From an uncultured bacterium (GTDB lineage Bacteria > Patescibacteriota > Minisyncoccia > Phycocordibacterales > GWA1-40-21): a stretch of 64,000 nucleotides of DNA. A program made the translations under genes and the position numbers. Below the pieces are notes generated by a model, which saw nothing but the letters and a program-made list of their open reading frames with translations, was not told the DNA's origin and made no database searches. The stretch is from assembly GCA_903831305.1 (NCBI GenBank), contig CAIKXE010000008.1, forward strand, positions 25,105 to 89,104, read 5' to 3'. This document shows positions 33,329 through 60,792 of this stretch, in pieces; the stretch's first letter is position 1; each line of letters opens with the position of its first letter.

Positions 33329-33358
33329 ACCGCCCCCGAAAGGCGGTTTTATCTTTAT
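33329..33358 (+). terminator. Intrinsic terminator AAACCGCCCCCGAAAGGCGGTTTT
   Basis: Hairpin followed by a T-run after rplU. Confidence 0.7.
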
Positions 33359-33379
33359 AAGAATGTTTAATTTTTTAGA

Positions 33380-35035: not shown

Positions 35036-35038
35036 TAT

Positions 35039-35932
35039 TTAAGTTAGTTTTATTTCACCGAGGACCTCTTTGATCAAACCCTTGAGCTCCATCACAGAGA
35101 GGACGGCGTTAGCTTGACCTGTGGGCATATTGAGCGAGCGGAGGAGAACATCTTTTTCCATCGGCTCGCGGAGAAGGGTAATCACCTTTTTTTCTTCCGC
35201 AGAACACTCGGCATATTCTAATTCTAAATTTCGAGGGGCGGAATCACGGTCCTTAAAGCCTAGAGCCAGCAGTAACTCCTTGGAACTAGTAATCGGCGTG
35301 GCGCCCAACCGTATCAGCATATGTGGACCCTCAGAGGTTTTAGAAAAAATGGATCCAGGGACAGTCAGCACATCTTTATTATAATCAGTAGCTAACCTAG
35401 AAGTAATTAAGGTTCCAGACTTAATCTCTGCTTCAATAATTAAAACAGCAGAAGATAGTCCAGCCATAATGCGGTTACGCTGGGGGAAACTATACTGAGT
35501 GGCTTTAAAGTCGGCGTCATATTCGGAAAGCATACAGCCACCACTTTCTAATATTTTTCTGGCTAAGCCAATATGGGCTTGGGGGTGGAGAGAAGTCACG
35601 CCTAATCCAGAGCCGGGAACAGAAATGGTTTTTAGTCCGGTATTGATAGCCGCCTCGTGAGCGATACCATCAATACCAATGGCTAGTCCAGAGACAATAG
35701 CCACATCATAACCACGAAGGCCGGCAATTAATTTTTCACAGGCTTCCTTGCCATAGTTCGTATACCGCCGGCTACCGACGACGCAAAGTAGTTTGGTATT
35801 GGGGCCGGGTAGGTCACCGCGTAAATAGAGTTTTTCCGGTGGCTCCGGAATCTCTAAAAGAGCTTCGGGAAAATTCTTCTTTTTAAGTTCATGGATGGGG
35901 AAGTCTCTGTCAATAATATGTTCAATTTTCAT
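35039..35932 (-). CDS. dprA: DNA processing protein DprA (Smf)
   Basis: GSRRYTNYG and GLAIGIDGIAHEAA Rossmann DprA motifs. Confidence 0.8.
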   Translation of the reverse strand: MKIEHIIDRDFPIHELKKKNFPEALLEIPEPPEKLYLRGDLPGPNTKLLCVVGSRRYTNYGKEACEKLIAGLRGYDVAIVSGLAIGIDGIAHEAAINTGLKTISVPGSGLGVTSLHPQAHIGLARKILESGGCMLSEYDADFKATQYSFPQRNRIMAGLSSAVLIIEAEIKSGTLITSRLATDYNKDVLTVPGSIFSKTSEGPHMLIRLGATPITSSKELLLALGFKDRDSAPRNLELEYAECSAEEKKVITLLREPMEKDVLLRSLNMPTGQANAVLSVMELKGLIKEVLGEIKLT

Positions 35933-35955
35933 CCCCTGATTTTAACACAGCCTCC

Positions 35956-35964
35956 AGATTATTC
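35956..35964 (+). promoter_or_regulatory. Perfect DnaA-box 9-mer within TTGTGGATAACTTT upstream of serS
   Basis: Exact match. Confidence 0.5.
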
Positions 35965-36046
35965 TTTGTGGATAACTTTTTCTAAAAATGCTAGTATTAT
36001 TAGTATAAATTATTCGGTTATTTATTAGTTTTATAAACATAAATAT

Positions 36047-37321
36047 ATGTTAGATATAAAATTCATCAGGGAAAATAAAGATTTGATTGAGGCCGGGGCT
36101 AAGAAAAAGCACTTAAAGTTTGATGTTTCCGAGCTTATCTTGGTGGATGATAAAAGACGAGCTTTATTGACCCTGACGGAAGATAAAAAAGCAGAGCAAA
36201 ACAAATTTAATGAGCAGATTATAAAGGTCACGGATACGGCCAAGCGTGGCCAGCTCATCATGGAGATGAAGATGGTTAAAGATGATTTAGCTAAGGGAGA
36301 AGAGGAGCTGAAGGAAGTGATGAAGCAATGGCAACTACTCATGCTTCAAGTACCTAATATTCCAGATATGTCCGTGCCGGATGGTGATGATGATACTGCT
36401 AATCGTGAGCATACTGTTTGGGGTGATATTCCTAAATTTGATTTCCCGGTTAAGGATCATATTGAACTCATGGAGAAGCTGGATATGGTGGATTTGGAGG
36501 CTGGCACCAGAATTGCTGGTTTTCGTGGCTATATTTTGAAAAATGACGGGGCATTATTAAACTATGCTCTGTGGCAGTTTGTGATGGAGTATTTCCGTGA
36601 GCATAAAAAAGATTATTCCCCCATGCTCGTACCTTCACTTGTCCGTCGAGAGACTCTTTTAGGAACTGGGTATTTACCGCAAGGGGAAGATGATTTGTAT
36701 AAGACCCAGGATGGTGAGTATCTGGCGGGAACAGCCGAGGTGTCTACCATGAGTTATTTCTCTGGCAAATTATTAAATGAGTCAGAGTTACCGCAAAAGG
36801 TGATTGCCTTCTCACCAGCATTTAGACGTGAGGCCGGTAGCCATAGCAAAGATGTGAAAGGTATTTTACGTGTGCATGAGTTTATGAAATTTGAGCAGGT
36901 GATTATCTGTGAAGCTAATCATGAGACTTCCGTCAAACACCATGAGGAGCTCCGTGAGAATGCTGAGGAGATACTGCGCGCCTTGAAATTACCTTACCAT
37001 GTAGTGGTTAACTGCGGTGGGGATCTGGGACTCGGTCAGGTGAAAAAATATGACATTGAGACTTGGGTGCCGTCACAGAATAAATACCGCGAGACTCATT
37101 CTTGTTCTTATTTCCATGATTTTCAGACTAGACGTTTGAATATCAAATATAAAGATGCTGAGGGTAAGGCCAAGTTTACCCACTCTCTGAATAACACTGC
37201 TCTGGCTACCCCGCGGATCCTGATTCAGATTGTAGAAAACTATCAGCAAGCTGACGGCTCAATCAAGGTGCCAGAAGTACTCCAAAAGTATATGGGTAAA
37301 GCAGTGATAACAAGAAAATAG
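36047..37321 (+). CDS. serS: Seryl-tRNA synthetase
   Basis: N-terminal coiled-coil MLDIKFIRENKDLIE; class II motifs FRREAGSHSKD and GLGQVKKYD. Confidence 0.9.
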   Translation: MLDIKFIRENKDLIEAGAKKKHLKFDVSELILVDDKRRALLTLTEDKKAEQNKFNEQIIKVTDTAKRGQLIMEMKMVKDDLAKGEEELKEVMKQWQLLMLQVPNIPDMSVPDGDDDTANREHTVWGDIPKFDFPVKDHIELMEKLDMVDLEAGTRIAGFRGYILKNDGALLNYALWQFVMEYFREHKKDYSPMLVPSLVRRETLLGTGYLPQGEDDLYKTQDGEYLAGTAEVSTMSYFSGKLLNESELPQKVIAFSPAFRREAGSHSKDVKGILRVHEFMKFEQVIICEANHETSVKHHEELRENAEEILRALKLPYHVVVNCGGDLGLGQVKKYDIETWVPSQNKYRETHSCSYFHDFQTRRLNIKYKDAEGKAKFTHSLNNTALATPRILIQIVENYQQADGSIKVPEVLQKYMGKAVITRK

Positions 37322-37432
37322 GTTTGTATCGGTCGGCCAGGATATTTAATTTTAAAAGTCCTCGGATCTCCTCGTCAGAACTTCGGCCAGACATTTTAAA
37401 ATCAAATATCCTGGCCTCCCTAAATAAGAACG

Positions 37433-38269
37433 ATGTCAGCCACTAGAAATCCAAATCTTGGTCCGTCTGTCATACGCGCAAAGAGGCGGAGGTTATTTTT
37501 AATTCGACTTTTGATAGTGGCATTCATTCTTTTAGTTATTGTTTTTGGCTCAGCTATTTTATCTGGTCATGAGAAAGTTCAGATCCAGACTATCACGGTC
37601 AGTGGTAACGCGGCTGTTCCCACTGATGATATTTTAGCTATAGCAAATCAAGCTTTAACTGGCCGGTATTGGCAGTTATTTGCCCGAAGCAATTCTTTAA
37701 TATTTCCTCGTTTTGAAATTAAAAATAGTCTATTACAAGCAATCAGGACTATAAAAGAAGTGGATATTTCTTGGACCAGCTGGCAGGAGATAAATATTTC
37801 TATTACAGAGAGGAAACCTCACTCGGTGTGGTGTGGGGATAGTCCGGCGCATACCGAGGAATGTTTTTTTGTGGACAAAGCTGGTTATGTTTATGCTCCT
37901 GCCCCGACTGCTTTTGGAAATCTCTTTGTCAGGGATTATGGCTTTCTCACGCCTGGTGACCCCTTGGGGCAGTATTATCTTGCCTTGGGGACATATGTCA
38001 GGGTTTTTAATCTGATATATTCTTTAGACCAAAATAATCTCAAGGTCATTGCGGTGACTTATGATGGCTTTGATTATCGGTTTGTTTTAGATAATAAGGT
38101 AGAGATTATCTTTAATAATAAAAATGATTTTGATTCTTCCTTTACTAATCTGTTTTCTGCTCTGGCTAATAAAAGCTTGGATTTAGTAAAGGACGGTGCT
38201 AGCATCAGTTATATTGATTTGCGTTTTGATAATAAAATCGTGATTGGTAAGAAAAACCCTATAAAATAA
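37433..38269 (+). CDS. ftsQ: Cell-division protein FtsQ/DivIB-like (single TM + POTRA)
   Basis: RRRLFLIRLLIVAFILLVIVFGS TM; POTRA-like IQTITVSGN. Confidence 0.6.
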   Translation: MSATRNPNLGPSVIRAKRRRLFLIRLLIVAFILLVIVFGSAILSGHEKVQIQTITVSGNAAVPTDDILAIANQALTGRYWQLFARSNSLIFPRFEIKNSLLQAIRTIKEVDISWTSWQEINISITERKPHSVWCGDSPAHTEECFFVDKAGYVYAPAPTAFGNLFVRDYGFLTPGDPLGQYYLALGTYVRVFNLIYSLDQNNLKVIAVTYDGFDYRFVLDNKVEIIFNNKNDFDSSFTNLFSALANKSLDLVKDGASISYIDLRFDNKIVIGKKNPIK

Positions 38270-38273
38270 TGAT

Positions 38274-39266
38274 ATGAAAAAAAACTTTTGGGAAAAATTA
38301 GATAAGCCGTTTTTTTGTTTAGCACCCATGGCGGATGTGACGGATATCGCTTTTCGAAAAATGCTTGCTAAATATGGTAAAAATCCAGCCAATAAAAATC
38401 AGGTGGTGTTTTGGACGGAGTTTGTTTCTGCGGACGGTTTGTGTCACCCTAAAGGCCGGCCACATTTACTGCCGACCTTAAAATTTTCTAAAATCGAGAA
38501 GCCGATCGTTGCTCAAGTGTTTGGTGCTAATCCGGCCAATATGGAAAAAGCCTGCCGACTGATTTCAAAGCTGGGTTTTGACGGTATTGATATTAATATG
38601 GGTTGTCCAGATAAAAGTGTGATCAAACAAGGGGCAGGTTCCGCTTTGATTAAAAATCCTAAACTCGCTCGGGAGATAATCCAGAGCGCGATTTTAGGCG
38701 CAGGTGGATTACCGGTATCAGTGAAAACTAGAGCCGGTTTTAATAAAGAAGAGATTGATACCTGGATTCCGGAATTGTTAAAGGAAGATATCAAGGCCCT
38801 CACTATCCACGCGCGAACAAAAAAGGAGATGTCTAAAGTGCCAGCGCACTGGGATTATGTGAAGCGGGTGGTAGAGCTCGTGAAGAAAAGTGGTAAGGCT
38901 ATCCCGGTGATTGGTAATGGTGATGTAGTAGATATTGCTGATGGTCAAAAAAAAAGTATTGAAACTGGTTGTGCTGGGGTGATGGTGGGGCGGGGAGTGT
39001 TTGGCAATCCGTGGTTTTTTTCTGGCCGAAAAATAGAAACAGTGAGCATAACAGAAAAAATAAAAGCATTGGTTGAACATATTAAAATTTTTGATAAAGA
39101 ATTACTTAAGACCAAGATAAAAAACTATGCGGTGATGAAAAAGCATTTTAAGGCGTATATAAATGGTTTTGCCGGAGCCAAGGAATTAAGAGAGAAGCTG
39201 ATGGCAACGGAGACCCCTAAAGAAAGCGTCCATATTTTGTCTTCCTTCCTAAAAACCATTAAATAA
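38274..39266 (+). CDS. dus: tRNA-dihydrouridine synthase
   Basis: LAPMADVTDIAFR; catalytic INMGCP; TIM-barrel length. Confidence 0.8.
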   Translation: MKKNFWEKLDKPFFCLAPMADVTDIAFRKMLAKYGKNPANKNQVVFWTEFVSADGLCHPKGRPHLLPTLKFSKIEKPIVAQVFGANPANMEKACRLISKLGFDGIDINMGCPDKSVIKQGAGSALIKNPKLAREIIQSAILGAGGLPVSVKTRAGFNKEEIDTWIPELLKEDIKALTIHARTKKEMSKVPAHWDYVKRVVELVKKSGKAIPVIGNGDVVDIADGQKKSIETGCAGVMVGRGVFGNPWFFSGRKIETVSITEKIKALVEHIKIFDKELLKTKIKNYAVMKKHFKAYINGFAGAKELREKLMATETPKESVHILSSFLKTIK

Positions 39267-39297
39267 AGGTTGTTTTGGCGGCCTTTATGGTAAATGC

Positions 39298-39326
39298 TTG
39301 ACTTTACCATAATATTATGCTAGTAT
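39298..39326 (+). promoter_or_regulatory. Sigma70 promoter TTGACT-17-TAGTAT for the GC-rich secreted-protein cassette
   Basis: Read from ttgactttaccataatattatgctagtat. Confidence 0.5.
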
Positions 39327-39423
39327 ATTAGATAGATAGTCCTGATAAACCAACCATATTTATTGCTTGCCCTATCGGGTGGCGTATGGCTGGAATCAGG
39401 AAGGATTGAAAGGGAAGAGTCCG

Positions 39424-39915
39424 ATGAGTAAGTTCATTGCAATGCTGACCGTCTTGGTTGCCTTGGTGGCGACCGTGTCGGCACAGGATCTGGAGATCGC
39501 TAAGTTCCAGATCCAGAACCATGACATTACTGTAGAGGTCATGAAACCCAGACTTGCCGCAATCTCACAGCACTGGGGACGGCCAGTTGTGACCGGTGTT
39601 GTGACGATCGTCATTCATAACCAGATGGAGATCGTCAGTGTCCAGAGTAACTGGAACGGAGAGGAAGGTGACGGAAGTCGCTTCTCGTACACCTTGGTCT
39701 ATCGGTTGAAGGGTGTGACGGTCGGTGAGGCACACCTTACATCATACTCATTGAGTCTCTTCAAGTTCTCGTCAACAAGTAAAGACTGTGTTGACGACTT
39801 GTGGATCACCCCGATGGGAGTGGTGCCGGAGGACGATATTGTCCGATTCCGGTCTGCCGAAGTTGGGGAGGATATCCATAACGGTACTAATCCTCGCAAG
39901 TTTCTGAAGAAGTAA
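39424..39915 (+). CDS. Small secreted protein (signal peptide MSKFIAMLTVLVALVATVSAQD), GC-rich
   Basis: SD GGGAAG precedes the ATG. GC-rich codons; ~95-nt GC-rich leader. Confidence 0.55.
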   Translation: MSKFIAMLTVLVALVATVSAQDLEIAKFQIQNHDITVEVMKPRLAAISQHWGRPVVTGVVTIVIHNQMEIVSVQSNWNGEEGDGSRFSYTLVYRLKGVTVGEAHLTSYSLSLFKFSSTSKDCVDDLWITPMGVVPEDDIVRFRSAEVGEDIHNGTNPRKFLKK

Positions 39916-39943
39916 CAAACAAGCACAAAGAGGAAAGGAGGTG

Positions 39944-39975
39944 GCCCCGACATTCGTGTCGGGGCTATTCGTTTG
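39944..39975 (+). terminator. Intrinsic terminator GCCCCGAC-AUUCGU-GUCGGGGC followed by U-tract
   Basis: Hairpin followed by a T-rich tract. Confidence 0.65.
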
Positions 39976-40016
39976 TCCATTTTTGTAAATCAGCTAAATT
40001 CTGTTATACTAGACCC

Positions 40017-41054
40017 ATGTCTGAAACCGCATTGTATCGCAAATACCGCCCGCAAAAGTTTTCTGAAGTCTTGGGGCAAGATCATATTGTAAAGGTGCTG
40101 GAATCATCCATTGATCTGGATCGTCTTTCTCATGCTTATATTTTTTCTGGGAGCCGGGGAACGGGCAAGACCTCTGTGGCCCGTATTTTTGCCCGCGAGA
40201 TCGGCACCAGTGTGAATGACATTACCGAGATTGACGCCGCTTCTAATAACGGTGTGGACGAGATCCGCGCCTTGACTGAAGCTGTCAGTACCTTACCTTT
40301 TGAATCAAAATACAAAGTGTATATTTTAGATGAAGCGCACATGCTCTCTAAAGGTGCTTGGAATGCCTTGCTGAAAACCTTGGAAGAGCCACCAAAGCAT
40401 GTGATTTTTATCCTAGCTACGACTGAGTTTGAAAAGATACCGGAGACCGTGATTTCCCGTTGTCAGAATTTTTCTTTTAAAAGACCGACGCAAAAAGTCC
40501 TAAAGGAAGTGGTTATAGCGATTGCTAAGAAGGAGGGCTTTGGGCTGGAGCCTGCCTCAGCTGATTTGGTGGCTCTGCTTGGTGACGGTTCCTTCCGTGA
40601 TGCGCAGAGTATTTTACAAAAGGTAATGGGCTCATCAAAGGATAAAATGATATCATTGGCTGAAGTAGTATTAGTGACGGGGGCACCACGGGGGGAGATG
40701 ATCAATGATTTTATCCGGGCGATAGATGAGAATAATCTGGGGCTTGGCTTGGCCTCGGTTTCCTTAGCCCTGGAGGCAAATATGGATATGCTACTGTATT
40801 TTAAATTAGTGTTGCACAAAATGCGCACTATTTTACTCTTGCGTAATTTAAAATCCGCCGAGGAAAAATTAAGAGAAGAGTTGACCGATACGGATTTTAC
40901 TTTCCTTAAAGCGTTGGCTGAAAAAAGGGATGGTAAAATCAACTCTGACACCTTGCTTACCTTGCTTACTCATTATGATCTGGTCTCTCACGCCTATCTC
41001 CCTGAGATGGTCTTGGAACTGCTATTGAATAAGTTAATCACTACTAAGGAATAA
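40017..41054 (+). CDS. dnaX: DNA polymerase III subunit gamma/tau (short form)
   Basis: YRPQKFSEVLGQ, Walker A GSRGTGKTS and DEAHML. Confidence 0.85.
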   Translation: MSETALYRKYRPQKFSEVLGQDHIVKVLESSIDLDRLSHAYIFSGSRGTGKTSVARIFAREIGTSVNDITEIDAASNNGVDEIRALTEAVSTLPFESKYKVYILDEAHMLSKGAWNALLKTLEEPPKHVIFILATTEFEKIPETVISRCQNFSFKRPTQKVLKEVVIAIAKKEGFGLEPASADLVALLGDGSFRDAQSILQKVMGSSKDKMISLAEVVLVTGAPRGEMINDFIRAIDENNLGLGLASVSLALEANMDMLLYFKLVLHKMRTILLLRNLKSAEEKLREELTDTDFTFLKALAEKRDGKINSDTLLTLLTHYDLVSHAYLPEMVLELLLNKLITTKE

Positions 41055-41102
41055 GGGTCTATCTATCCGAACATTAATAGTATATACTAAGGCTTAGTAT
41101 TA

Positions 41103-41798
41103 ATGTTCATGAAAGTAGAGTTAAAAAATAAAGCGATAGCTCTAAGAAAGGAGGGAAACACATATTCAGAAATTATGAAGGTTATTCCGGTGGCTAAGTC
41201 TACTTTGTCTGATTGGTTGAAACAGGTTGGTATGGTAAAGGAAGTAAAACAAATTTTTACTGAAAAGAGAAGGTTGGCCTCTCTTAAAGGTGGGCAGGCT
41301 AAACGAAAACAGAGAGTAGATCTTTATAATTTGATTACTGGAAAGGCTGAGAAAGAAATTGGTAGGATGACGAGAAGAGAATTATGGCTAGTGGGCACTG
41401 CCTTGTATTGGGCGGAGGGATCAAAAGAGAAAGAAGGGCGTCCGGGCACGGGAATTAGCTTTTCAAACTCTGATTATCAGATGGTTAATTTATTTTTGAA
41501 ATGGTTGATGTTTGTTATCAATATTCCTAGGGAGGAAATCAGCTGTGAGATATATATTCATGATAGTTATCGTGATGAAATTCCTCGTTTTCAAAAGTAT
41601 TGGTCAACTAAAACCGGTTTACCTTTGAGTTATTTTAATACGGTCTATTTTAAGAGGATTAAGATTAATACCAAAAGAAAGAATGTGGGGGACTTGTATA
41701 ATGGACAATTAAGAGTTAAAGTATACAGGAGCTCGTCCTTGAACCGTCAAGTGGCGGGTTGGGTCCGAGGTATAAATAAATATTGGGGGATCGTCTAA
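41103..41798 (+). CDS. HTH + LAGLIDADG-like endonuclease-fold protein; 3' end overlaps the 5' end of tRNA-Gln by 15 nt
   Basis: N-terminal HTH NTYSEIMKVIPVAKSTLSDWLKQ; LAGLIDADG-like LVGTALYWAEGS. Confidence 0.45.
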   Translation: MFMKVELKNKAIALRKEGNTYSEIMKVIPVAKSTLSDWLKQVGMVKEVKQIFTEKRRLASLKGGQAKRKQRVDLYNLITGKAEKEIGRMTRRELWLVGTALYWAEGSKEKEGRPGTGISFSNSDYQMVNLFLKWLMFVINIPREEISCEIYIHDSYRDEIPRFQKYWSTKTGLPLSYFNTVYFKRIKINTKRKNVGDLYNGQLRVKVYRSSSLNRQVAGWVRGINKYWGIV

Positions 41799-41854
41799 TG
41801 GTAGGACAACGGATTTTGGATCCGTTTATTTTGGTTCGACTCCAAGTCCCCCAG
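41784..41854 (+). tRNA. tRNA-Gln (anticodon TTG)
   Basis: U1:A72 acceptor UGGGGGA/UCCCCCA with G73 (bacterial Gln identity); D-arm GUCU-AAUGGUA-GGAC; anticodon loop UUUUGGA; T-loop UUCGACU. Confidence 0.8.
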
Positions 41855-41884
41855 CTTTGTTCAGGATTTTAATAAGATAAATTT

Positions 41885-42187
41885 ATGTTACCAGCAACAG
41901 ATTTAATATATTTCTATATAATTCTATCAGGCTTTATGACCGTTTGGGCTTTTAGAAAGACTGTCGGTAGAAAGGAAAAACTTGGTGAATTTGAATATAT
42001 TGGGTTCAGTGCCTTTTGGGGTATTGCTTTAATTATTTTCTATAATTTTGCAAAGGCTAGTAATCTAAAAATAAGTAGTGGTTTACTTTTTAATCCAATT
42101 GATATTGGGTTTGTCCTAGCTCTTGCAGGTATGTTTTTTGCTTGGTTAGTTGGGTTGATCTGTAATTTATTTGGTTGGGGAAGATAA
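41885..42187 (+). CDS. Small membrane protein (100 aa, 3 TM)
   Basis: Hydrophobic segments. Confidence 0.45.
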   Translation: MLPATDLIYFYIILSGFMTVWAFRKTVGRKEKLGEFEYIGFSAFWGIALIIFYNFAKASNLKISSGLLFNPIDIGFVLALAGMFFAWLVGLICNLFGWGR

Positions 42188-42247
42188 ATTCATCTACGGT
42201 TATGTGTCTTCGATATACTACACACAGCATAATATATATAAAATAAT

Positions 42248-42724
42248 ATGGCAAATATATACGAAACAGAAAATTTTGTTGTCGAGTCACAAAGTGAACC
42301 ATTTGTGTCGCGCACTGATGGCGGGCATATTCGGATTAGAATTAAAGATAAAAGCATTACAGATAGGACAAAGCTTGAGTCAAAAGTGGCAATAGAGCTT
42401 ATGCGTTTGACCATGATCGTCGGCGAGGCGTTTGAGATAGCGATGAATAACAGAGGTATACCAGTGGTGAAAATAAATTATCAGGATATGGGGAATTGGG
42501 CTTACAAAAGAAATGAAAAACCATTTCTTCATGTGCACATTTTTGGGCGAGCAACTAATGCGGTCAAACAGATTTGGCCAGAGAGTGTGTCTTTGCCTGC
42601 TAGAGAAAGTGGTTTTTATGAAGGATTTGAACCACTAAATACTGAGGATATTGAAGAAGTTAAAAAGCAGATTTTCCAGGCAGAAGCAAAAGAAAAATAC
42701 CAACTTAAGAACTGGGGTATTTAA
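42248..42724 (+). CDS. HIT-like (histidine triad) hydrolase-fold protein
   Basis: HxHxH-like PFLHVHIFGR. Confidence 0.45.
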   Translation: MANIYETENFVVESQSEPFVSRTDGGHIRIRIKDKSITDRTKLESKVAIELMRLTMIVGEAFEIAMNNRGIPVVKINYQDMGNWAYKRNEKPFLHVHIFGRATNAVKQIWPESVSLPARESGFYEGFEPLNTEDIEEVKKQIFQAEAKEKYQLKNWGI

Positions 42725-42726
42725 TA

Positions 42727-43584
42727 TTGTCCGCTATGAAAAACAATAAAATTTGGTTTGTTAATAAAACTTATGGCTATGGGTGGACGCCGGCCACTTG
42801 GGAAGGCTGGCTGGTTATATTTTTGTGGCTTATTCTTTTTGTCCCCCTAACTCTGGCGGTAGAGCACAATTTACCTTTTAGCTTGATCGGGATATTCTTT
42901 GTTACTGGTTTACTAATATATATTTGTTATAAAAAAGGGGAGAAACCACACTGGCAGTGGGGTAAAAAGAATCAAAACCTAAAATTACTTCTGACATCCG
43001 CGGGATTAGCCAATCAAAAAATTAAGGAAGTGTTTTTGGCTGAAGTGGGGGAACCACTAAAAGAAAAAATGGTTTTGCTGATTGCTTATGCGCAAAATAA
43101 TGATGAGCAGTTTTATGTGGATAAGTCAGTAGAGGAACTCCAGACTTTAGGAATGCAAAAAATTACTATCTTTAACCTGCATAAGCCGACAGTGGTCACA
43201 AACCTGCCAAAATTTGATGTCATATATATGTGTGGGGGAAACACTTTTTCTATTTTAAAAAAGTTGCGTGAGACGGGGATAGATAAGTTGGTTATTTCTC
43301 AGGTAAACTCTGGTGCCCTTTATGTGGGTGTCTCGGCTGGTAGTATTATCGCGGGACCGGATATTAAAATAGCGGGACATGGGAGTGAAGGTGACCCTAA
43401 TGATGTTAAATTGGTGGACCTTTCTGGATTTAAATTCACGGACACTATTATCTTTCCGCATTATAGGGAGCTATTAAAATCTGAAGTGGAATCTTTCCAA
43501 CGTCTGGTAAAAAACCCGGTCATCGCCCTCACGGATAATCAAGCCTTGCTTATTAGCGGCGGAAAATCAATAATAATAGAGTGA
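42727..43584 (+). CDS. Membrane-anchored S51 peptidase (PepE/cyanophycinase-like)
   Basis: N-terminal 2 TM; catalytic Ser context VGVSAGSIIAG; YMCGGNTFSILKKL. Confidence 0.6.
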   Translation: MSAMKNNKIWFVNKTYGYGWTPATWEGWLVIFLWLILFVPLTLAVEHNLPFSLIGIFFVTGLLIYICYKKGEKPHWQWGKKNQNLKLLLTSAGLANQKIKEVFLAEVGEPLKEKMVLLIAYAQNNDEQFYVDKSVEELQTLGMQKITIFNLHKPTVVTNLPKFDVIYMCGGNTFSILKKLRETGIDKLVISQVNSGALYVGVSAGSIIAGPDIKIAGHGSEGDPNDVKLVDLSGFKFTDTIIFPHYRELLKSEVESFQRLVKNPVIALTDNQALLISGGKSIIIE

Positions 43585-44237
43585 TGAATCAAGAAACACA
43601 GGAATTTATAGCTGAGTTAAAGACTAGACCCGATGTTTTGGGAATCATTCTTTTTGGCTCTTGGGCGCGGGGGAATAATCGTCCTGATAGTGATGTTGAC
43701 TTGGTTGTGATTATACAGACAGGCTTCAAGCGGACGGTGGAATACAGAAATAAGCAGGCTTTCGAGATAATATATAATACTGTAGATGGAGCTATTAATT
43801 TTTGGATGACGCATGGTGATGACTGTGCTGGTCTTTGGGAGATAGCAAAAATTCTTTATGATAAAGATGGTTCTGTTAAACTCTTACAGTCCGAAGCACA
43901 AAAAATAATTCAGAACGGCAAAAAGGAGATTGATTTATTTCAGGTGGAACAATATAAGTTTAGTGCGGAGGATGAAATCGTCGCGATTCGGGCACTTAAA
44001 CAAACTGATGTGGCCACCGCAAATCTAGTGTTAAGTAAAATGGTACTTTTTCTCACCGAATTATTCTTTAATTTAAGACAGTTGTGGACACCGGCGCCAA
44101 AACAAAGATTAACAAAAATACAGGAAATAATGCCTGAGCTGCATAAGCTTTTGGTGGCTTTTTACGCTGATGATAAAACTCTAGATGAAAGAATTGATTT
44201 AGCCGAAGAAATAGTCGTCAGTGTTTTTAAAAAATAA
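43581..44237 (+). CDS. Nucleotidyltransferase (Pol-beta superfamily; KNTase/ANT-like N-terminal NTase + helical C-domain); overlaps upstream gene by 4 nt
   Basis: GIILFGSWARGNNRPDSDVDLVVI (GS...D.D). Confidence 0.65.
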   Translation: MMNQETQEFIAELKTRPDVLGIILFGSWARGNNRPDSDVDLVVIIQTGFKRTVEYRNKQAFEIIYNTVDGAINFWMTHGDDCAGLWEIAKILYDKDGSVKLLQSEAQKIIQNGKKEIDLFQVEQYKFSAEDEIVAIRALKQTDVATANLVLSKMVLFLTELFFNLRQLWTPAPKQRLTKIQEIMPELHKLLVAFYADDKTLDERIDLAEEIVVSVFKK

Positions 44238-44280
44238 AATGGTCACGGCCCGCAGGAGTGCATCCTAGCGGGCCGGGTTA

Positions 44281-44769
44281 TTAGCTACCGTGTGGTAGCC
44301 AGATGGGGACTCGAGAAAGGTCAGGAATTGAGACATATGGGTCGTCATAACGTAGCACCCTTATTGCTCTAAAATTGGAGTCGTTATAGTGTGTTATTGA
44401 CCTCAATCTGAAGTCGTGAAAGCCATCAAAGCGTTCAAACGTTCCAAAGTTGAGCCCTTCTTCATATGCCTGGATGTAGGCCAAGCCAAAAGTGGTAATG
44501 TAGACCATGGCCTTCCCTTGAAGGCACTTAAGGTAATTCAGTACCTCTTGCTCGGTAGGGTTGCCCCTAAACCTAATCCTGTCATGATAGACATTAATGT
44601 CATTACCCCAGACGTAGGTAACAGAATCGATCTGTTCCCTAGATAGGTCATGACTGGTGTTAATGACTACAGACGGCTTGCCAGAGCTATCATTCAGAAT
44701 TCGAGATCTGGCATCGTTCGTACAGATCAGTTGATACATGGTTGCGTTCCTTTTTGTTGTTGGATTCAT
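44281..44769 (-). CDS. Hypothetical protein (162 aa), moderately GC-rich
   Basis: ORF only; no confident motif. Confidence 0.35.
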   Translation of the reverse strand: MNPTTKRNATMYQLICTNDARSRILNDSSGKPSVVINTSHDLSREQIDSVTYVWGNDINVYHDRIRFRGNPTEQEVLNYLKCLQGKAMVYITTFGLAYIQAYEEGLNFGTFERFDGFHDFRLRSITHYNDSNFRAIRVLRYDDPYVSIPDLSRVPIWLPHGS

Positions 44770-45032
44770 TCAATACACGAAACGGAAGCTAAACACACAG
44801 GCGGGCAATTTCACGCTTTTGAGGGACACCTCCTTTCTTGAGTTGTGAGAGAACTTGTGGTCTGGTATAAGTATAGCATGATAAATATAGCCAGACAATA
44901 GGGGATTGTGGGTAACTTGTTTTTGACAGTAATATGTTTGATTGTTTGCCGTCTAATTAGGTGTATAATGATAGTGTAATTTAATAGGTAAAAAATTTAG
45001 GTAAAATAAATAATACTTAAATATTTAGGAAT

Positions 45033-45941
45033 ATGAAGAATATAATTATTGGAATTATTGTCGTCCTTGCTCTCGGTCTCGGTATTTATTATTTTACAGG
45101 CACCAAGTCAAACAAGGTGGTGCTAGATGTTGATAAAAATGTGGCTACGACCACCAAAGATGTCGTGAAAGTGGCTACTAGCACTGTGCCTACTAGTGGT
45201 TCACAGAGTATCCTCGGGACTTCTGTCTCAGGTAAAAATATTTTAGCTTATCACTATGGTACCGGTAGTACAGAAATATTATTGGTGGGTGGTATTCACG
45301 GTGGTTATGCTTGGAACACCCCTTTGCTTGCCTTCCAAGTGATGGATTATCTAAAGGCTAACCCCACAGTCATACCCGCTGGTTTGCGCGTGACAGTTAT
45401 CCCGGTTTTAAATCCTGATGGTTTGGTCAAGGTGACTGGAACGGATGGACGCTTTACCGTTGGTGATGTTTCTGAGAGTCAGGCTACAGTGGTGGCTGGG
45501 CGTTTCAATGCAAATAAAGTGGATTTAAACCGTAACTTTGATTGTGATTGGAAAGCAAATAGTGTCTGGCAGAATACGGATGTGAGTGGTGGTAGTGCCG
45601 CATTCTCTGAGCCAGAGGCCAAGGCTTTGAAAACTTATGTAGAGACTAGTCAGCCTAAGGCGGTGGTAGCTTGGTATAGTGCAGCCGGTGGAGTGTATTC
45701 TTCAAATTGTCATAACGGCGTTTTGCCTGAGACTAAGGATCTGACTAGTACCTATGCCAAGGCTTCTGGCTATAGTGCCAATGAAGAATTTGACTTCTAT
45801 GAGACAACTGGTGACCTGACAAATTGGCTAGCTAAGAAGGGTATTCCGGCTATTGGTGTCCTCTTGACTAACCATACCGATACGGAATTAGCCAAGAATA
45901 AGGCTGGCTTGCTCGCTATCTTTAAGTATTATACTAAGTAA
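45033..45941 (+). CDS. M14 zinc carboxypeptidase-like protein (gamma-D-glutamyl-diamino acid peptidase-like), N-terminal TM anchor; paralog A
   Basis: HGGYAWN, NPDG and NRNFDCDW motifs. Confidence 0.7.
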   Translation: MKNIIIGIIVVLALGLGIYYFTGTKSNKVVLDVDKNVATTTKDVVKVATSTVPTSGSQSILGTSVSGKNILAYHYGTGSTEILLVGGIHGGYAWNTPLLAFQVMDYLKANPTVIPAGLRVTVIPVLNPDGLVKVTGTDGRFTVGDVSESQATVVAGRFNANKVDLNRNFDCDWKANSVWQNTDVSGGSAAFSEPEAKALKTYVETSQPKAVVAWYSAAGGVYSSNCHNGVLPETKDLTSTYAKASGYSANEEFDFYETTGDLTNWLAKKGIPAIGVLLTNHTDTELAKNKAGLLAIFKYYTK

Positions 45942-46810
45942 TGAGTTCTATTTTTTCTCGACGGACTATTACGGTAATAGTCATCCTGGCTCTTTTGGGC
46001 TGGGGTGGCTATGTGCTGTATGGTCAGTTTAAGCGAGCACCTGTGGTGGAGACTGTGCAAACACCGGTGGAAACTATAATCGGTAAGTCAGTGGAAGGTA
46101 GGGAGATCAAGGCTTATACTTATGGGACCGGTAAAACCCATCTACTCTTTGTAGGTGGTGTTCATGGTGGCTATGAATGGAACAGTGTTCTTTTGGCCTA
46201 TAATTTTATTGATTACCTTAATACCAATATTTCTTATTTTCCAGAATTTTTGACGGTGACGGTGATACCAGCAGTAAATCCAGATGGCGTGTATAAGGTA
46301 ATCGGTAAGGAAGGGCGGTTTGCTTTTGCTGATGTAGCTACCAGCACTTCTGTCACTGGTATTGGGCGATTTAATTCTAATAATGTGGATTTAAACCGAA
46401 ACTTTGATTGTAAATGGAAGTCACAAAGTACTTGGAAGAATAATATTGTCAGTGCCGGAACAAAAGCTTTTTCGGAACCGGAAGCAGCCGCCTTGCAAGG
46501 TTTTGTTTTAAAAAACAAACCAACAGCGGTGATCTTTTGGCATAGTATGTCTAACGCAGTCTATGCCTCCGAATGTAAGAATGGTATTTTACCGGAGACC
46601 AGAAATATTATGAACACTTATGCTAAGGCGGCGGGCTATCCGGCGGTGGACACCTTTGATAGCTATGAAATAACTGGTGATGCCGAGGGGTGGCTGGCAT
46701 CTATAAATATCCCGGCAATTACCGTGGAGCTTAAAACCCATGAAAGTGTAGAGTGGGAGAAAAACCTAGCTGGTATCAAAGCTTTGTTTAAGTATTATCA
46801 AAGGCCCTAG
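45941..46810 (+). CDS. M14 zinc carboxypeptidase-like protein, paralog B (tandem duplicate; start overlaps the stop of paralog A)
   Basis: HGGYEWN, NPDG and NRNFDCKW; colinear similarity to 45033..45941. Confidence 0.7.
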   Translation: MSSIFSRRTITVIVILALLGWGGYVLYGQFKRAPVVETVQTPVETIIGKSVEGREIKAYTYGTGKTHLLFVGGVHGGYEWNSVLLAYNFIDYLNTNISYFPEFLTVTVIPAVNPDGVYKVIGKEGRFAFADVATSTSVTGIGRFNSNNVDLNRNFDCKWKSQSTWKNNIVSAGTKAFSEPEAAALQGFVLKNKPTAVIFWHSMSNAVYASECKNGILPETRNIMNTYAKAAGYPAVDTFDSYEITGDAEGWLASINIPAITVELKTHESVEWEKNLAGIKALFKYYQRP

Positions 46811-46817
46811 TCTATAG

Positions 46818-47570
46818 CTAGTTTTTGGAACGCTTCCAATTATCTAGTAGTACGGCGGTGGCGATGGAGACATTTAAAGATTCAGTTTTGCCATAAGCAG
46901 GAATATTAATTTTATTTGTCACTAAACTTTCTATTTCCTTATCAATGCCGTTTGATTCATTACCCATCACTAATATTCCACCATTGGGGAATTTAAAATT
47001 ATGAGCATTTTCTCCGGTCATAAAAGCTCCGAGGATAGGGGTATTCACATTACTTAAAAAAGACTTAAGATCTGCATAAAAGACCTGGACACGGGTAAAA
47101 GAGCCCTTGGTAGCGGAGATGACCTTAGGATTATATAGATCCACAGTACCGATAGAGGCAATGATTTTTTTAATACCATACCAGTCCGCGATACGGATTA
47201 TAGTGCCTAAATTCCCCGGATCACGCACATTATCCAAAGCTAGGATGATCTCATCACCGGTAATTTTAAAATCTAGGACAGGCATATCTTTTTGTTTGAC
47301 GACCGCAAGCACAGAATCATTACTGTCTAAACTGCTGACCTTTTCAATCTCACCGGCCTCTACGAGCTCGCAATTAACATTTTTGGTGTTAATAATTTTT
47401 TGGTATTTTGAATAAAAAGACTTGGTGGTAATCAGGGTTTTGATTTCAAAATTTGACTGCAGAGTCTCAACGACACTTTTTTCACCTTCTACAAGGAATA
47501 GACCGGTTTTCTGGCGGTTTTTTTTATCAGCTAGGGATTTTATGATATTAGCTTGGCTTTTGGTAAACAT
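46818..47570 (-). CDS. SpoU/TrmH-family RNA 2'-O-methyltransferase
   Basis: DNVRDPGNLGTIIRIADWYG and MGNESNGI SPOUT motifs. Confidence 0.75.
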   Translation of the reverse strand: MFTKSQANIIKSLADKKNRQKTGLFLVEGEKSVVETLQSNFEIKTLITTKSFYSKYQKIINTKNVNCELVEAGEIEKVSSLDSNDSVLAVVKQKDMPVLDFKITGDEIILALDNVRDPGNLGTIIRIADWYGIKKIIASIGTVDLYNPKVISATKGSFTRVQVFYADLKSFLSNVNTPILGAFMTGENAHNFKFPNGGILVMGNESNGIDKEIESLVTNKINIPAYGKTESLNVSIATAVLLDNWKRSKN

Positions 47571-47602
47571 TTGTCAACTATAGCATATTTGCTCTAAATA
47601 AA

Positions 47603-47756
47603 AAAAGGTGAACCGACCACTGCAAGCAGCGTCGGTTCAGGTGGGGTGAGGACAGCGATGTCGTTACCGGGTTGTGTTGCAAGCCACGGCCTGCGTTTTG
47701 TCCCTAAGGGGACACCTTGTAACGAGAGCATCGGGTCTCTCTCCACTCCCAAGATA
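47603..47756 (-). ncRNA. Putative structured small RNA (~150 nt, GC-rich), unknown family; promoter TTGCAA-17-TATTAT on the minus strand and intrinsic terminator GAACCGAC...GUCGGUUC followed by ACCUUUUUUU
   Basis: GC-rich island without a credible ORF (the 62-aa track ORF begins in the promoter). Promoter and terminator read on the minus strand. Lies directly upstream of the TrmH-family gene. Confidence 0.4.
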
Positions 47757-47791
47757 ATATAAAATATATTATATTTTTGCAAGTTAGCTCT

Positions 47792-47800
47792 TGTGGATAA
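47792..47800 (+). promoter_or_regulatory. Perfect DnaA-box 9-mer within TTGTGGATAACTTT upstream of the SIMPL-domain gene
   Basis: Exact match. Confidence 0.5.
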
Positions 47801-47859
47801 CTTTCATATCTATGCTATTATAGTAAGTACAATTGTTTTATAAGCATTAATCTAAAAAA

Positions 47860-48600
47860 ATGAAAGCAAGTGAAGAAAAAAGTTTTTATAGTTCCATTCA
47901 GTTTATTATTGGTCTTTGTCTCATTATTAGTTCTGTTATTTTTTCCTTAGCATTTTATAGCTCAAGAATTTCTACGGATTCTATTTCCGTGACGGGTTCT
48001 GCTTCTCAGGAGGTGGTGTCTGATAATGCTAAGTTTTCTGGTGATTTCTCCAGAATTGTAAAACTCAGTGCTTTGAAGACAGGCTATGATCAGATGGCAA
48101 AAGACTTAGTTGTGGTTAAGGATTTTTTGAAAGCCCAAAAGATTGAGGATAAGGATATAACTATTTCTACTGTTTCCATGCAACAAAATTATGATTATAA
48201 TCAAAACGTCAGTCAGGCGGAGAAAGACTATACTTTACGCCAGACGGTAGAAATATCTTCTTCAGGTGTGGCTAAAATCACCGCCTTAGCTCAGGCCACA
48301 CAATCAATCATAAATAAAGGGGTTATCTTTAGCGTCTATCCGGTAGAATATTATTATAGAAATTTACCGGAAGTTAGAGTTTCTCTTCTGTCTTCTGCCG
48401 TGGCTGATGCCAAGAAGCGAGCTGAGGAGATTGTCTCTGGTACTGGCCAAAAGATTGGGGCCTTGAAGTCTGCGGCGAGTGGGGTGGTCCAGGTCCTTCC
48501 GGCCAATTCTTTAGAAATTTCTGATTACGGTACTTATGATACTACCAAGGTAAATAAGAACATTATGGTGACAGTAAAGGCGGCTTTTACAATAAAATAG
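47860..48600 (+). CDS. SIMPL/DUF541 domain protein (periplasmic immunogenic protein family)
   Basis: N-terminal TM; length and composition typical of DUF541. By-eye call. Confidence 0.45.
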   Translation: MKASEEKSFYSSIQFIIGLCLIISSVIFSLAFYSSRISTDSISVTGSASQEVVSDNAKFSGDFSRIVKLSALKTGYDQMAKDLVVVKDFLKAQKIEDKDITISTVSMQQNYDYNQNVSQAEKDYTLRQTVEISSSGVAKITALAQATQSIINKGVIFSVYPVEYYYRNLPEVRVSLLSSAVADAKKRAEEIVSGTGQKIGALKSAASGVVQVLPANSLEISDYGTYDTTKVNKNIMVTVKAAFTIK

Positions 48601-48682: not shown

Positions 48683-49387
48683 TTACTCTTGTCTAAAAGG
48701 GGCGTTTTTGATGATCTGGATTATCTCATCTTCAGAATCTACTATTTTATAGATATTTTCATCTTCTAGGTTTATGGTGTGTTCATCATGATAGAGTTTA
48801 TCATCAATCAACTTTAGCAGCGGGGTCCAAAATTCTCGACCCACTAATATCACTGGCACCTTGGGGATTTCACTAGTTTGAATCAAGGTAACTATTTCAA
48901 ATAGTTCATCCATGGTACCAAAACCACCGGGGTAATAGATATAGGTTTCGGCGGAGAAAAAAAGTAGGGTTTTACGACTGAAAAAGTATTCAAATTCTAC
49001 GTGCTCGGTGAGATAGATATTTGTTGCTTGTTCTTTAGGTAATTTAATTGCAAAACCAATAGAGACGCCGCCGGCTTCATAAGCTCCCTTATTGGCGGCC
49101 TCCATAATACCAGGACCACCACCGGTAACCACCGCATATTTTAGTTCCTGGACGATTCTCCGCCCCAGCGACTCTGCTTGCTGATAATAAATATTGTCTG
49201 ATTTAAACCGAGCAGAACCTAAAATGCTGACCGAACGCGGATATTTTTTTATTAAATTATAACCGTTGGTAAATTCTTTGTCAGTAATTACCATTCGATT
49301 TTTTATTAAGCGGTCAATTTCTTTTATTGTTAAAAGGTCACCGCTACGGTGTACTTTTTTTGCAAATAAGTTTTTTATGTTTAGCAT
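48683..49387 (-). CDS. LOG-family (Rossmann TIGR00730-type) nucleotide phosphoribohydrolase
   Basis: VTGGGPGIMEAANKGA and GGFGTMDELFE motifs. Confidence 0.7.
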   Translation of the reverse strand: MLNIKNLFAKKVHRSGDLLTIKEIDRLIKNRMVITDKEFTNGYNLIKKYPRSVSILGSARFKSDNIYYQQAESLGRRIVQELKYAVVTGGGPGIMEAANKGAYEAGGVSIGFAIKLPKEQATNIYLTEHVEFEYFFSRKTLLFFSAETYIYYPGGFGTMDELFEIVTLIQTSEIPKVPVILVGREFWTPLLKLIDDKLYHDEHTINLEDENIYKIVDSEDEIIQIIKNAPFRQE

Positions 49388-49434
49388 CGCACTATTATAG
49401 CATTTATCTTAAAATTTGCTATATTAGTGAGGTA

Positions 49435-50667
49435 ATGACTATGGATTTTAGGATTGAAAAAAGACTTACAGGTAAGCTCGGTCGGGCTGGTACTTTGACC
49501 GTGCCTCATGGGGTGATAGAAACGCCAGCATATGTTGTGGTGGGGACAAAAGGCACGGTCAAATCTGTGGATTCCGCTCAGGTGAAGGAGGCCGGGGCGC
49601 AGGTGGTACTTTCTAATACTTATCACTTATATTTACAGCCGGGGGATGAGGCGGTGAAGAAAATGGGAGGGTTGAATAAAATGATGAATTGGTCCGGGCC
49701 CTCTATGACGGATTCAGGTGGTTTCCAAGTTTTCTCTTTGGGGGCTGCTTATAAAAAAGGAATTTCTAAAGTCTTGCAGGTGACGGATCCCTCGCTTTTA
49801 ATTCCGGAGCGGTTTGATGATTCTGATGCGCCCCGGCTGGCTAAAATCGGTCAGGATGGTGTGTCCTTTACTTCACATATTGATGGTTCAGTGCATTATA
49901 TTACGCCAGAAAAGTCTATTCAGATTCAGCACAATATTGGTGCCGATATTATTTTTGCTTTTGACGAATGTACTTCGCCAAACGAAGATTTGAAGTATCA
50001 AGGAGAGGCACTAGAGCGAACACATAATTGGGCTCGGCGGTCCTTGGAGGAGCATATCAAGCTCGAGAACCAGAAAAGTTTTTCTGACACTTCTCAGTCC
50101 ATATTCGGTATTGTTCAAGGTGGACGAGATGAAGAATTGCGGAAAAAGTCCGCTAAATTTATTTCTGAGGTAGAAGTGGAAGGTAAGAAATTTGATGGTT
50201 TTGGTATTGGTGGTTCTTTTGCCAAAGAGGATATGCAAACCGCTGTAAAATGGGTGAATGAAATTTTACCGGAAGATAAACCAAGGCATTTGCTCGGGAT
50301 AGGTGAACCAGAAGATTTGTTTATGGGGGTTGAGAGTGGGGTGGATTTGTTTGATTGTGTTTTACCGACTAGGTTGGGAAGAAACGGCACACTTTATACT
50401 AAGGAAGGAAAAATCCATATTACTAATACTGAATATCGTCTGGATACAAAACCAGTAGAAGAGGATTGCCCGTGTTATACCTGTACGCATTATTCTCGCT
50501 CTTATATTTGTCACCTCTTTCATGGTAAAGAAATGCTCGCTGGTACTCTGTCATCTATCCACAATATTCATTTCTTAGTTAATCTGGTTAAAAAAATCCG
50601 TCAGTCTATCTTAGATGAGAATTTTGCGGAGTTTAAAGAAAGCTTTTTGAATAAATATAAGCAGTAA
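49435..50667 (+). CDS. tgt: Queuine tRNA-ribosyltransferase
   Basis: TPAYVVVGTKG; QGGRDEELR; Zn site CPCYTCTHYSRSYICHL. Start moved to MTMDFRIEKRL. Confidence 0.85.
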   Translation: MTMDFRIEKRLTGKLGRAGTLTVPHGVIETPAYVVVGTKGTVKSVDSAQVKEAGAQVVLSNTYHLYLQPGDEAVKKMGGLNKMMNWSGPSMTDSGGFQVFSLGAAYKKGISKVLQVTDPSLLIPERFDDSDAPRLAKIGQDGVSFTSHIDGSVHYITPEKSIQIQHNIGADIIFAFDECTSPNEDLKYQGEALERTHNWARRSLEEHIKLENQKSFSDTSQSIFGIVQGGRDEELRKKSAKFISEVEVEGKKFDGFGIGGSFAKEDMQTAVKWVNEILPEDKPRHLLGIGEPEDLFMGVESGVDLFDCVLPTRLGRNGTLYTKEGKIHITNTEYRLDTKPVEEDCPCYTCTHYSRSYICHLFHGKEMLAGTLSSIHNIHFLVNLVKKIRQSILDENFAEFKESFLNKYKQ

Positions 50668-51339: not shown

Positions 51340-51789
51340 ATGAACAGAAACCCCTCCCAACCTCCCCTTGTCAGGGGAGGGGAAAATCCTAAAAGACTTG
51401 ATCTTAAGTTTATTCCTTATAATAAGGAATTAGTTTCTCGAGCTAGAGAATTAAGGCTAAATCAGACCCCGGCCGAAAGAGTATTTTGGGAAACTCTGCT
51501 CAATAAAAAAACTATTGAATATAAATTTACCAGACAGAAGCCAATCGATAATTTTATTGCAGATTTTTATTGTTCAAAACTCTTATTGGCTGTAGAAATA
51601 GATGGTCAAATCCATTTGGCTACAGAAAAAAGAGATCAAGAGAGAACCGATATATTGTGTTTGAAGTACGGTATTTTGGTGGTTAGATATTCTAATGATG
51701 AAGTTTTAAGAGACCCAAATGGTGTTATAAACAACCTAGAAAAAATAATACACGCGCGAGAATCTTTTCCCCCTGACAAGGGGGATTAA
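51340..51789 (+). CDS. DUF559 (Vsr-like PD-(D/E)xK endonuclease fold) protein, bounded by 14-bp inverted hairpins (CCCCTTGTCAGGGG at 51365-51378 and CCCCTGACAAGGGG at 51767-51780) inside its own coding ends
   Basis: Core LLAVEIDGQIHLATEKRDQERTDILCLKYGILVVRYSNDEV is typical of DUF559; the terminal inverted repeats were read by eye. Confidence 0.65.
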   Translation: MNRNPSQPPLVRGGENPKRLDLKFIPYNKELVSRARELRLNQTPAERVFWETLLNKKTIEYKFTRQKPIDNFIADFYCSKLLLAVEIDGQIHLATEKRDQERTDILCLKYGILVVRYSNDEVLRDPNGVINNLEKIIHARESFPPDKGD

Positions 51790-54487: not shown

Positions 54488-54509
54488 GAATTTATGCTAG
54501 AATCACTCT

Positions 54510-56225: not shown

Positions 56226-56253
56226 TTGTGGTTTTTTATGCTAGAATAGGGGG

Positions 56254-57951: not shown

Positions 57952-58083
57952 AGTTTAGGACTTTTTTATGCTAGTCTTTTTACAGATGATCTTTCTGTCT
58001 TATAGTCAAGAAAGGTAGTGACTAGTGATAAACAAGGAAGACCGGGCAAGATTAGCCATTGTCCTCATGATCATTGGTGTCAT

Positions 58084-58146
58084 TGTTCTTACTGTGGTGT
58101 TACATTTTGTGATGAATCCTTCAAACTAGTCCACAGTACGGTGAAC
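58084..58146 (+). CDS. Candidate 20-aa hydrophobic micropeptide (MIIGVIVLTVVLHFVMNPSN) followed by the strong terminator GGGCAGG...CCUGCCC+UUUUU at ~58153-58190
   Basis: Tiny ORF plus terminator forming an isolated unit upstream of the 58219 membrane-protein gene; speculative. Confidence 0.2.
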
Positions 58147-58218
58147 GCAAGCGGGCAGGTGTAGTGATGCGCCTGCCCATTTTTAATTGTCAGATTTTAA
58201 TGCTATTATTTACCTGTT

Positions 58219-60520: not shown

Positions 60521-60751
60521 ATGGGATTTTTTAAAGATTTGCTTTTGAAGAAGATGCTTAAGAATCAGTTAAAGGGCGTGCCAGAGGATCAACAGAATAA
60601 AATAATTGAGGCGGTAGAAAAGAACCCCAAGTTGTTTCAGGATATTGCCACCGAGGTGCAGGAAAAAATCAAAGGGGGTATGGACCAACAGTCCGCCACT
60701 ATGCAGGTGATGATGAGTCATCAAAAAGAATTGCAGGATTTGATGAGATAA
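60521..60751 (+). CDS. Small helical hypothetical protein (76 aa)
   Basis: ORF only. Confidence 0.4.
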   Translation: MGFFKDLLLKKMLKNQLKGVPEDQQNKIIEAVEKNPKLFQDIATEVQEKIKGGMDQQSATMQVMMSHQKELQDLMR

Positions 60752-60792
60752 TGGGATACAAAAGCCCCAAGATTAGCTTAAAACTTTTAATA

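Follow-up and report, generated by a model that had tools for sequence, protein, structure and literature searches.

A GC-rich intergenic element in a Patescibacteria genome as a candidate free-standing structured small RNA gene

A short GC-rich segment upstream of a TrmH-family methyltransferase gene, in a bacterium within the Patescibacteria (nearest public relatives labelled Paceibacterota, Parcubacteria or Saccharibacteria MAGs), raises the question of whether it encodes an independent small RNA (sRNA) or forms a riboswitch-like attenuator leader of the gene that follows it, both of which had been proposed in a sequence-only reading of the locus. The analysis was carried out on the whole 64,000-nt stretch of DNA (the window), and the element was followed on the minus strand within a 289-nt spacer bounded by the TrmH-family gene (46818-47570, minus strand, ATG at 47570) and the divergent SIMPL/DUF541 gene (47860-48600, plus strand, ATG at 47860, assigned using Pfam). 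Read along the minus strand, an AT-rich stretch with two promoter-like sites is followed by the GC-rich core, a terminator hairpin and a U7 tract. The U tract ends 29 nt upstream of the TrmH-family ATG at 47570, against the 30 nt given previously, and all of the sequence features described in the sequence-only reading were found where it had placed them.

In 100-nt windows the G+C content was 0.56-0.58 across the core, as compared with 0.22-0.24 in the flanking spacer and 0.40 in the whole window, in agreement with the earlier description of a GC-rich segment, and no intergenic 120-nt window exceeds the core in G+C (0.57) or folds at a lower energy. Single-sequence fold prediction for the 110-nt core (GGGAGUGG...CCCCAC, 47641-47750, minus strand) yielded a minimum free energy (MFE) of -46.0 kcal/mol (z = -4.20 against dinucleotide shuffles), with the MFE structure representing 38% of the ensemble, and a 161-nt stretch yielded -64.5 kcal/mol (z = -4.33). 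The 5' and 3' ends of the core are predicted to pair as an interrupted rod of ~25 bp with two 3-nt bulges (ACC and CUC), the tip of which is predicted to be a three-way junction bearing the hairpins GUCCC-CUUA-GGGAC and GCAGGC-CGUG-GCUUGC, linked in the predicted fold by the A/C-rich strands AAAAC and AACACA. The same core fold recurred when the full transcript was folded, and this secondary structure is to be read as a model derived from a single sequence. The plus strand folds alike (-65.0 kcal/mol, z = -3.95), so that folding energy does not discriminate between the strands; since both fold equally well, the assignment to the minus strand relies on the promoter-like site and the U tract. 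Long terminator hairpins give several other spacers of the window z-scores equal to or stronger than that of the element. The high G+C of the core and its stable fold, in a genome of 40% GC and between flanks of 22% GC, suggest selection on RNA structure.

The downstream end of the element is an intrinsic terminator, consisting of the hairpin UGAACCGACGCUG-CUUG-CAGUGGUCGGUUCA (47609-47639, minus strand; 13 pairs, one bulged G and a CUUG loop) with an energy of -17.2 kcal/mol and a U7 tract (47600-47606, minus strand) that begins 2 nt (CC) past the stem. A GC-rich hairpin followed by a U tract is therefore present on the transcribed strand, and the earlier term "textbook terminator" is apt; a hairpin of -17 kcal/mol or lower followed by T6 or more is expected by chance only 0.03 times per window (30 shuffles of local composition). 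A simple terminator scan missed the hairpin at 47639-47609, probably due to the bulge in its stem, whereas a dedicated scan for hairpins followed by T runs recovered it (T7) together with five similar sites in the window, four of them located directly past gene ends and one ~200 nt past a gene end. No minus-strand gene lies upstream of this terminator, the next gene in that direction (SIMPL) being on the opposite strand, and the terminator must therefore end a transcript that begins inside the spacer.

For the beginning of this transcript, a promoter scan identified the -35-like hexamer TTGCAA (47777-47782, minus strand) and the -10-like hexamer TATTAT (47754-47759, minus strand), separated by a 17-nt spacer and with 9/12 consensus matches. 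The TTGCAA-17-TATTAT promoter proposed earlier is thus present on the minus strand at 47782-47754. However, nine promoter-like sites were found in the AT-rich stretch, against 6.7 +/- 2.6 in shuffles, and with such sites at chance frequency the candidate sRNA promoter is plausible but without statistical support. It is also of an atypical kind, as its TATTAT lacks the TGC extension typical of the promoters of this organism, in which the TGCTATAAT extension marks the clear cases. An alternative promoter-like site, TCCACA-18-TATAAT (47768-47797, minus strand, 10/12 matches), would lengthen the 5' end by ~11 AU-rich nt. Judging from spacing, transcription would start at about 47750-47746.

The clear promoters of this organism were defined by motif search as an extended -10 element with the consensus TATGCTATAAT, all nine matches to which (at most one mismatch) lie just upstream of a same-strand ORF start, usually 6-7 nt before the ATG. 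The pattern TGnTAnnnT ends 4-9 nt before the start codon in 13/57 genes of the window; examples of extended -10 sites are found at 12030-12038, 27146-27154, 47579-47587 (minus), 49396-49404 (minus), 54495-54503 and 56239-56247. With TGnTAnnnT so near the start codon, the genes concerned, TrmH included, would be leaderless, which implies that leaderless mRNAs are widespread in this Patescibacteria genome. The extended -10 promoter of TrmH, TATGCTATAGT (47577-47587, minus strand), is located 6 nt before the ATG at 47570 and downstream of the sRNA terminator, and sets the downstream limit of the sRNA unit. The same element is found at the same distance before TrmH in five loci of relatives (L002, L006, L010, L026 and L084), where the upstream spacers are short and unrelated. 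The TrmH start is confirmed by full-length alignment with homologues of 248-250 aa, and no Shine-Dalgarno sequence was found before its ATG. On the other side of the spacer, the promoter motif of SIMPL, TATGCTATTAT, was located by the same type of search at 47811-47821 (plus strand); as the complement of the sRNA is located upstream of this motif, it is not part of the SIMPL transcript.

Known RNA families and protein-coding potential were then assessed. A search of the whole window against Rfam 15 at gathering thresholds returned six tRNAs only, and a 401-nt scan using permissive filters gave no match on the strand of the element within 47606-47750 at E<=10, including the models for 6S RNA (RF00013), small SRP RNA (RF00169), tmRNA, RNase P RNA, 5S RNA, Y RNA, riboswitches and ribozymes. 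The statement, made by eye in the sequence-only reading, that 6S, SRP and tmRNA motifs are not recognisable is consequently upheld by covariance search. The longest reading frame (frame -0; 62 aa, 47782-47594) has a TTG start inside the -35 hexamer and crosses both the terminator hairpin and the U tract. Its sole match among 1.84 billion representative proteins and in a 5.8-billion-sequence database was an identical 45-aa gene call of the same species (P0241), and Pfam gave no match in five frames. No conserved reading frame was found, and the earlier judgement that the segment contains no credible ORF was borne out.

Homologues of the element were sought in the same species, in the corresponding loci of relatives and in public sequence collections. 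Three contigs of the same species from other samples, retrieved via the identical TrmH protein, are 100% identical over 2.5-3.7 kb and therefore carry no information on covariation, polymorphism or selection. Samples in which this organism occurs include ENA ERZ18659709 and ERZ18659518 and JGI 3300045650. In 80 TrmH loci of GTDB species (~4 kb around TrmH), no match was obtained using nhmmer, blastn or a single-sequence covariance model (R1). The closest relative found, a sister species in JGI 3300045131 with a TrmH 84% and a SIMPL 89% identical, has a 53-nt spacer upstream of TrmH from which the element is absent. It is likewise absent from SIMPL relatives at 89, 85, 82, 81, 79 and 73% identity, in which spacers of 3-130 nt and different upstream genes precede SIMPL; the covariance model, run there without filters, gave no match. 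In the metagenome collection, 0 matches were obtained for a strict junction pattern whose stems were coded as R/Y and 13 for a relaxed junction pattern, 0/13 of which fitted the covariance model at the match site; as the collection did not return the JGI contig of the species itself, this negative is weak. Four scans of viral collections yielded chance matches only, blastn against plasmid and phage collections yielded nothing, and the 62-aa frame, used as a query to catch gene calls laid over homologous RNAs, retrieved the same-species call only. Thus, no homologue with compensatory base-pair changes was found in the TrmH or SIMPL loci of relatives or in the collections searched, and the element is absent from close relatives at every syntenic position examined, an outcome that the sequence-only reading had named as evidence against its proposal. 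This absence withdraws comparative support for a function and leaves the feature itself standing. Two other structures were observed upstream of TrmH during these comparisons, namely an inverted repeat with arms of ~35 nt (GAAATTCGAAGCACGAAATCCGAAAC...) at ~1000-1270 of locus L007 and a terminator-like hairpin, AAGGTCTGGCCTTT...AAAGGCCAGACCTT, at ~3880-3940 of locus L004, neither of which is homologous to the element.

The gene order around the spacer was compared with that of the relatives, in which ClpB, x, CAP, a 172-174-aa gene, SIMPL, cytidine deaminase, LOG, TGT and UvrB follow one another, an order that is taken from these sequence comparisons to be ancestral. SIMPL lies 3-19 nt past the 172-174-aa gene in the relatives, whereas here these genes are found at 32921 and 47860, with the ClpB-CAP-172-aa part at 28.5-32.9 kb of the window. 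A 15-kb housekeeping block is interposed (L21, CTP synthase, DprA, SerRS, Dus, a clamp-loader subunit, a tRNA, two M14 peptidases and TrmH), and the cytidine deaminase gene, located between SIMPL and LOG in the relatives, is missing here. As this block splits genes that are adjacent in the relatives, the candidate RNA lies at the right-hand junction of a species-specific rearrangement (32921-47860). No flanking direct or inverted repeats of the kind expected for mobile-element ends were found, and a comparison of the spacer with all of the relatives' loci using tblastx (six-frame) and blastn-short gave no similarity that would point to a gene-fragment origin. Three RNA-modification genes are located within 12 kb around the candidate RNA, Dus (38274-39266), the TrmH-family gene (46818-47570) and TGT (49327-50667); their clustering is probably a coincidence because the rearrangement joined the TrmH and TGT blocks.

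Taken together, these data were used to weigh the possible identities of the element. A cis-acting leader of TrmH, in which the core would sense a ligand or protein, set the terminator and so control read-through, has in its favour that a structured domain followed by a terminator and a same-strand gene resembles an OFF-switch leader and that the downstream gene encodes an RNA methyltransferase. However, between the terminator and the ATG lies an extended -10 promoter belonging to TrmH itself, which is kept in relatives that lack the candidate RNA and represents the standard leaderless layout in this genome, and a transcript reading through would reach the TrmH ATG without a Shine-Dalgarno sequence. 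Constrained folding predicted no antiterminator or other structure competing with the terminator: the core and the terminator behave as independent domains, blocking the 5' strand of the rod leaves the terminator intact, and the best duplexes between the core and a terminator arm reach -9 to -12 kcal/mol, against -17 kcal/mol for the terminator. The nearest relative found, with its 53-nt spacer, has no such element, and no riboswitch family matched at E<=10. A riboswitch or attenuator leader was rejected: the position of TrmH's own extended -10 would place the element outside the TrmH 5' UTR, no mutually exclusive terminator and antiterminator pairings are predicted, and neither the 80 GTDB loci nor the 84% relative has the putative sensor domain upstream of TrmH. 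This reading is accordingly very unlikely, the second of the two roles proposed earlier does not hold, an independent sRNA is better supported than an attenuator leader, and the candidate RNA does not regulate TrmH in cis. A small protein, encoded by the 62-aa frame at 47782-47594 or by another short frame, is a reading to which we attach almost no credence: frame -0 is open across the whole element and the public gene call P0241 covers 45 aa of it, but the TTG start falls within the -35 hexamer, the frame runs through terminator and U tract, no homologue besides the identical same-species call exists in the databases searched, Pfam finds nothing, and open frames are expected in GC-rich sequence of an AT-rich genome.

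The remaining explanations accept the element as RNA or as debris. A highly diverged housekeeping RNA, such as an RNA-protein scaffold or a functional analogue of 6S RNA, which would be encoded at other positions in relatives, is improbable. Stable protein-bound RNAs are typically rod-like with paired termini, a shape that the predicted rod resembles, and the relatives were inspected ~4-20 kb around TrmH or SIMPL, a range that non-syntenic copies would escape. On the other hand, no match to 6S, SRP, RNase P, tmRNA, 5S or Y RNA was obtained at E<=10, the ~110-nt core has no large central bubble and so departs from the 6S architecture, and the transition-tolerant junction patterns found nothing real in the metagenome collection. 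More weight, although it is still an unlikely explanation, is given to a non-functional or merely insulating by-product of the rearrangement, that is, a GC-rich relic, possibly foreign, combined with a terminator and placed between two divergent promoters that the rearrangement newly brought side by side, any transcript of which would be incidental. In favour of this, the 15-kb block that splits genes adjacent in relatives has the element at its right edge, where junk is expected; none of the relatives examined carries the element; uptake of GC-rich DNA by this genome is exemplified by the island at 8.7-14.1 kb described below; and the promoter is atypical for the organism. Against such an origin, neutral DNA in a 40% GC genome should lose a G+C of 57% and a near-perfect self-complementarity (z = -4.2), the terminator is in the correct orientation and context, no similarity to genes in the relatives' loci was found at the six-frame or nucleotide level, and frame -0 has no homologue among the 1.84 billion representative proteins. 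A structured RNA gene that is young, having been born or captured at the rearrangement junction, or that is the first member of a fast-evolving, shape-conserved class of CPR RNAs acting as a protein-binding scaffold in the form of a rod with a three-way junction at its tip, is a further conceivable explanation, which we regard as speculative and of low probability.

The reading preferred here is that of a candidate free-standing structured small RNA gene, restricted to the species or lineage, which we consider about evenly balanced between true and false. The independent sRNA of the earlier proposal retains its terminator, its compact GC-rich fold and the absence of an upstream minus-strand gene, while its promoter is reduced to a plausible match to the consensus, suitably spaced from the core, occurring at chance frequency and of an atypical type. 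In the mechanism envisaged for this free-standing RNA, a sigma-70-type -35/-10 promoter would start minus-strand transcription near 47750, and the ~150-nt transcript is predicted to fold co-transcriptionally into a rod formed by its own 5' and 3' ends, with a three-way junction at the tip carrying two short hairpins. The strong intrinsic terminator, recognisable at the sequence level, would release the transcript and may also shield the leaderless TrmH promoter, whose start is 13 nt further downstream. The exposed A/C-rich junction strands and the apical loops might then bind a protein or pair with other RNAs. Since paired ends and a compact GC-rich fold occur in an AT-rich spacer, a stable trans-acting RNA is suggested, which according to the predicted structure could be either a protein-binding scaffold or a pairing RNA.

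The candidate was compared with known systems. It resembles orphan, species-specific sRNAs with an intrinsic terminator in being intergenic, in having a -35/-10-like promoter, a length of ~150 nt and a GC-rich hairpin followed by a U tract, and conservation that does not extend beyond close relatives is common for such sRNAs. Most base-pairing sRNAs, however, expose a single-stranded seed, often at the 5' end, whereas in this candidate, known from its sequence, both ends would be held in a long rod and only short A/C-rich strands would be free. GC-rich intergenic islands are reported to reveal structured non-coding RNAs in AT-rich genomes, an approach associated with Klein, Misulovin and Eddy in 2002 and with the GC-IGR screens of the Breaker laboratory. 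The pronounced G+C maximum (0.57) within a spacer of 0.22 GC, in a genome of 0.40 GC, and the stable predicted fold are like those found in such screens; their candidates were accepted on covarying homologues, whereas no homologue was found for the element described here. Terminating riboswitch or attenuator leaders share with it the succession of structured domain, terminator and same-strand gene, but differ in that here the promoter of the gene is downstream of the terminator, there is no antiterminator, the element is not conserved with the gene and no Rfam match was obtained. Rod-shaped stable RNAs (6S, 4.5S/SRP and Y RNA) are likewise GC-rich and compact and closed by a long interrupted helix between their 5' and 3' ends, yet the element matches none of their models and its predicted tip is a three-way junction with two hairpins of 5-6 bp. 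More specifically, 6S RNA is an irregular hairpin of ~150-200 nt whose large central bubble imitates an open promoter, whereas the core is 110 nt long with bulges of 1-3 nt only, and unlike SRP RNA the element contains neither the domain IV motif nor a GNRA loop. It is thus an orphan candidate of a familiar kind of feature, for which an independent sRNA is plausible.

To our knowledge, few RNAs beyond tRNA, rRNA, SRP RNA, RNase P RNA and tmRNA have been described for Patescibacteria (CPR), and a literature search covering leaderless promoters and non-coding RNAs of CPR bacteria retrieved no relevant work. Should the element be expressed, it would represent a regulatory or scaffold RNA specific to its lineage within the Patescibacteria (CPR) and possibly an example of a recently born structured RNA; were it indeed a young RNA gene or the first of a shape-conserved class, it would join a very small number of RNAs outside the housekeeping set that have been proposed for such reduced genomes. 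Firmer, and of wider use, are the findings that the element is not a TrmH leader and that many genes, TrmH among them, appear to be leaderless via TGnTAnnnT (TATGCTATAAT) located 6-7 nt before the start codon.

Several further features of the window were recorded. A GC-rich island at 8700-14130, in which 100-nt windows reach 0.68 GC against 0.40 overall, contains genes for an M20 peptidase (8997-10127), a metallophosphoesterase (10752-11915) and two hypothetical proteins, and was probably acquired horizontally. Behind three of the island genes, with ends at 10610, 11915 and 14065, strong intrinsic terminators are located at 10639-10671, 11949-11986 and 14085-14123, respectively. The spacers 37322-37432, 60755-60874 and 24459-24578 have folds with z-scores of -11.6, -12.5 and -8.6, far beyond those of ordinary terminators, and 60755-60874 contains a long near-perfect inverted repeat, AAAACCCCGAAAATAG...CTATTTTCGGGGTTTT. 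Two short ORFs located in spacers fall below the 90-aa cut-off of the gene list: one at ~58022-58130 (plus strand) would encode a peptide of ~35 aa with a hydrophobic stretch and is followed by a terminator (58153-58184), and the other, of 76 aa at 60523-60751 (plus strand), is followed by the long hairpin at 60755-60874. Finally, a DUF559 gene (Vsr-like endonuclease fold) was identified at 51340-51789 among unannotated small genes between TGT and UvrB, a position occupied in the relatives by a 48-aa ORF only.
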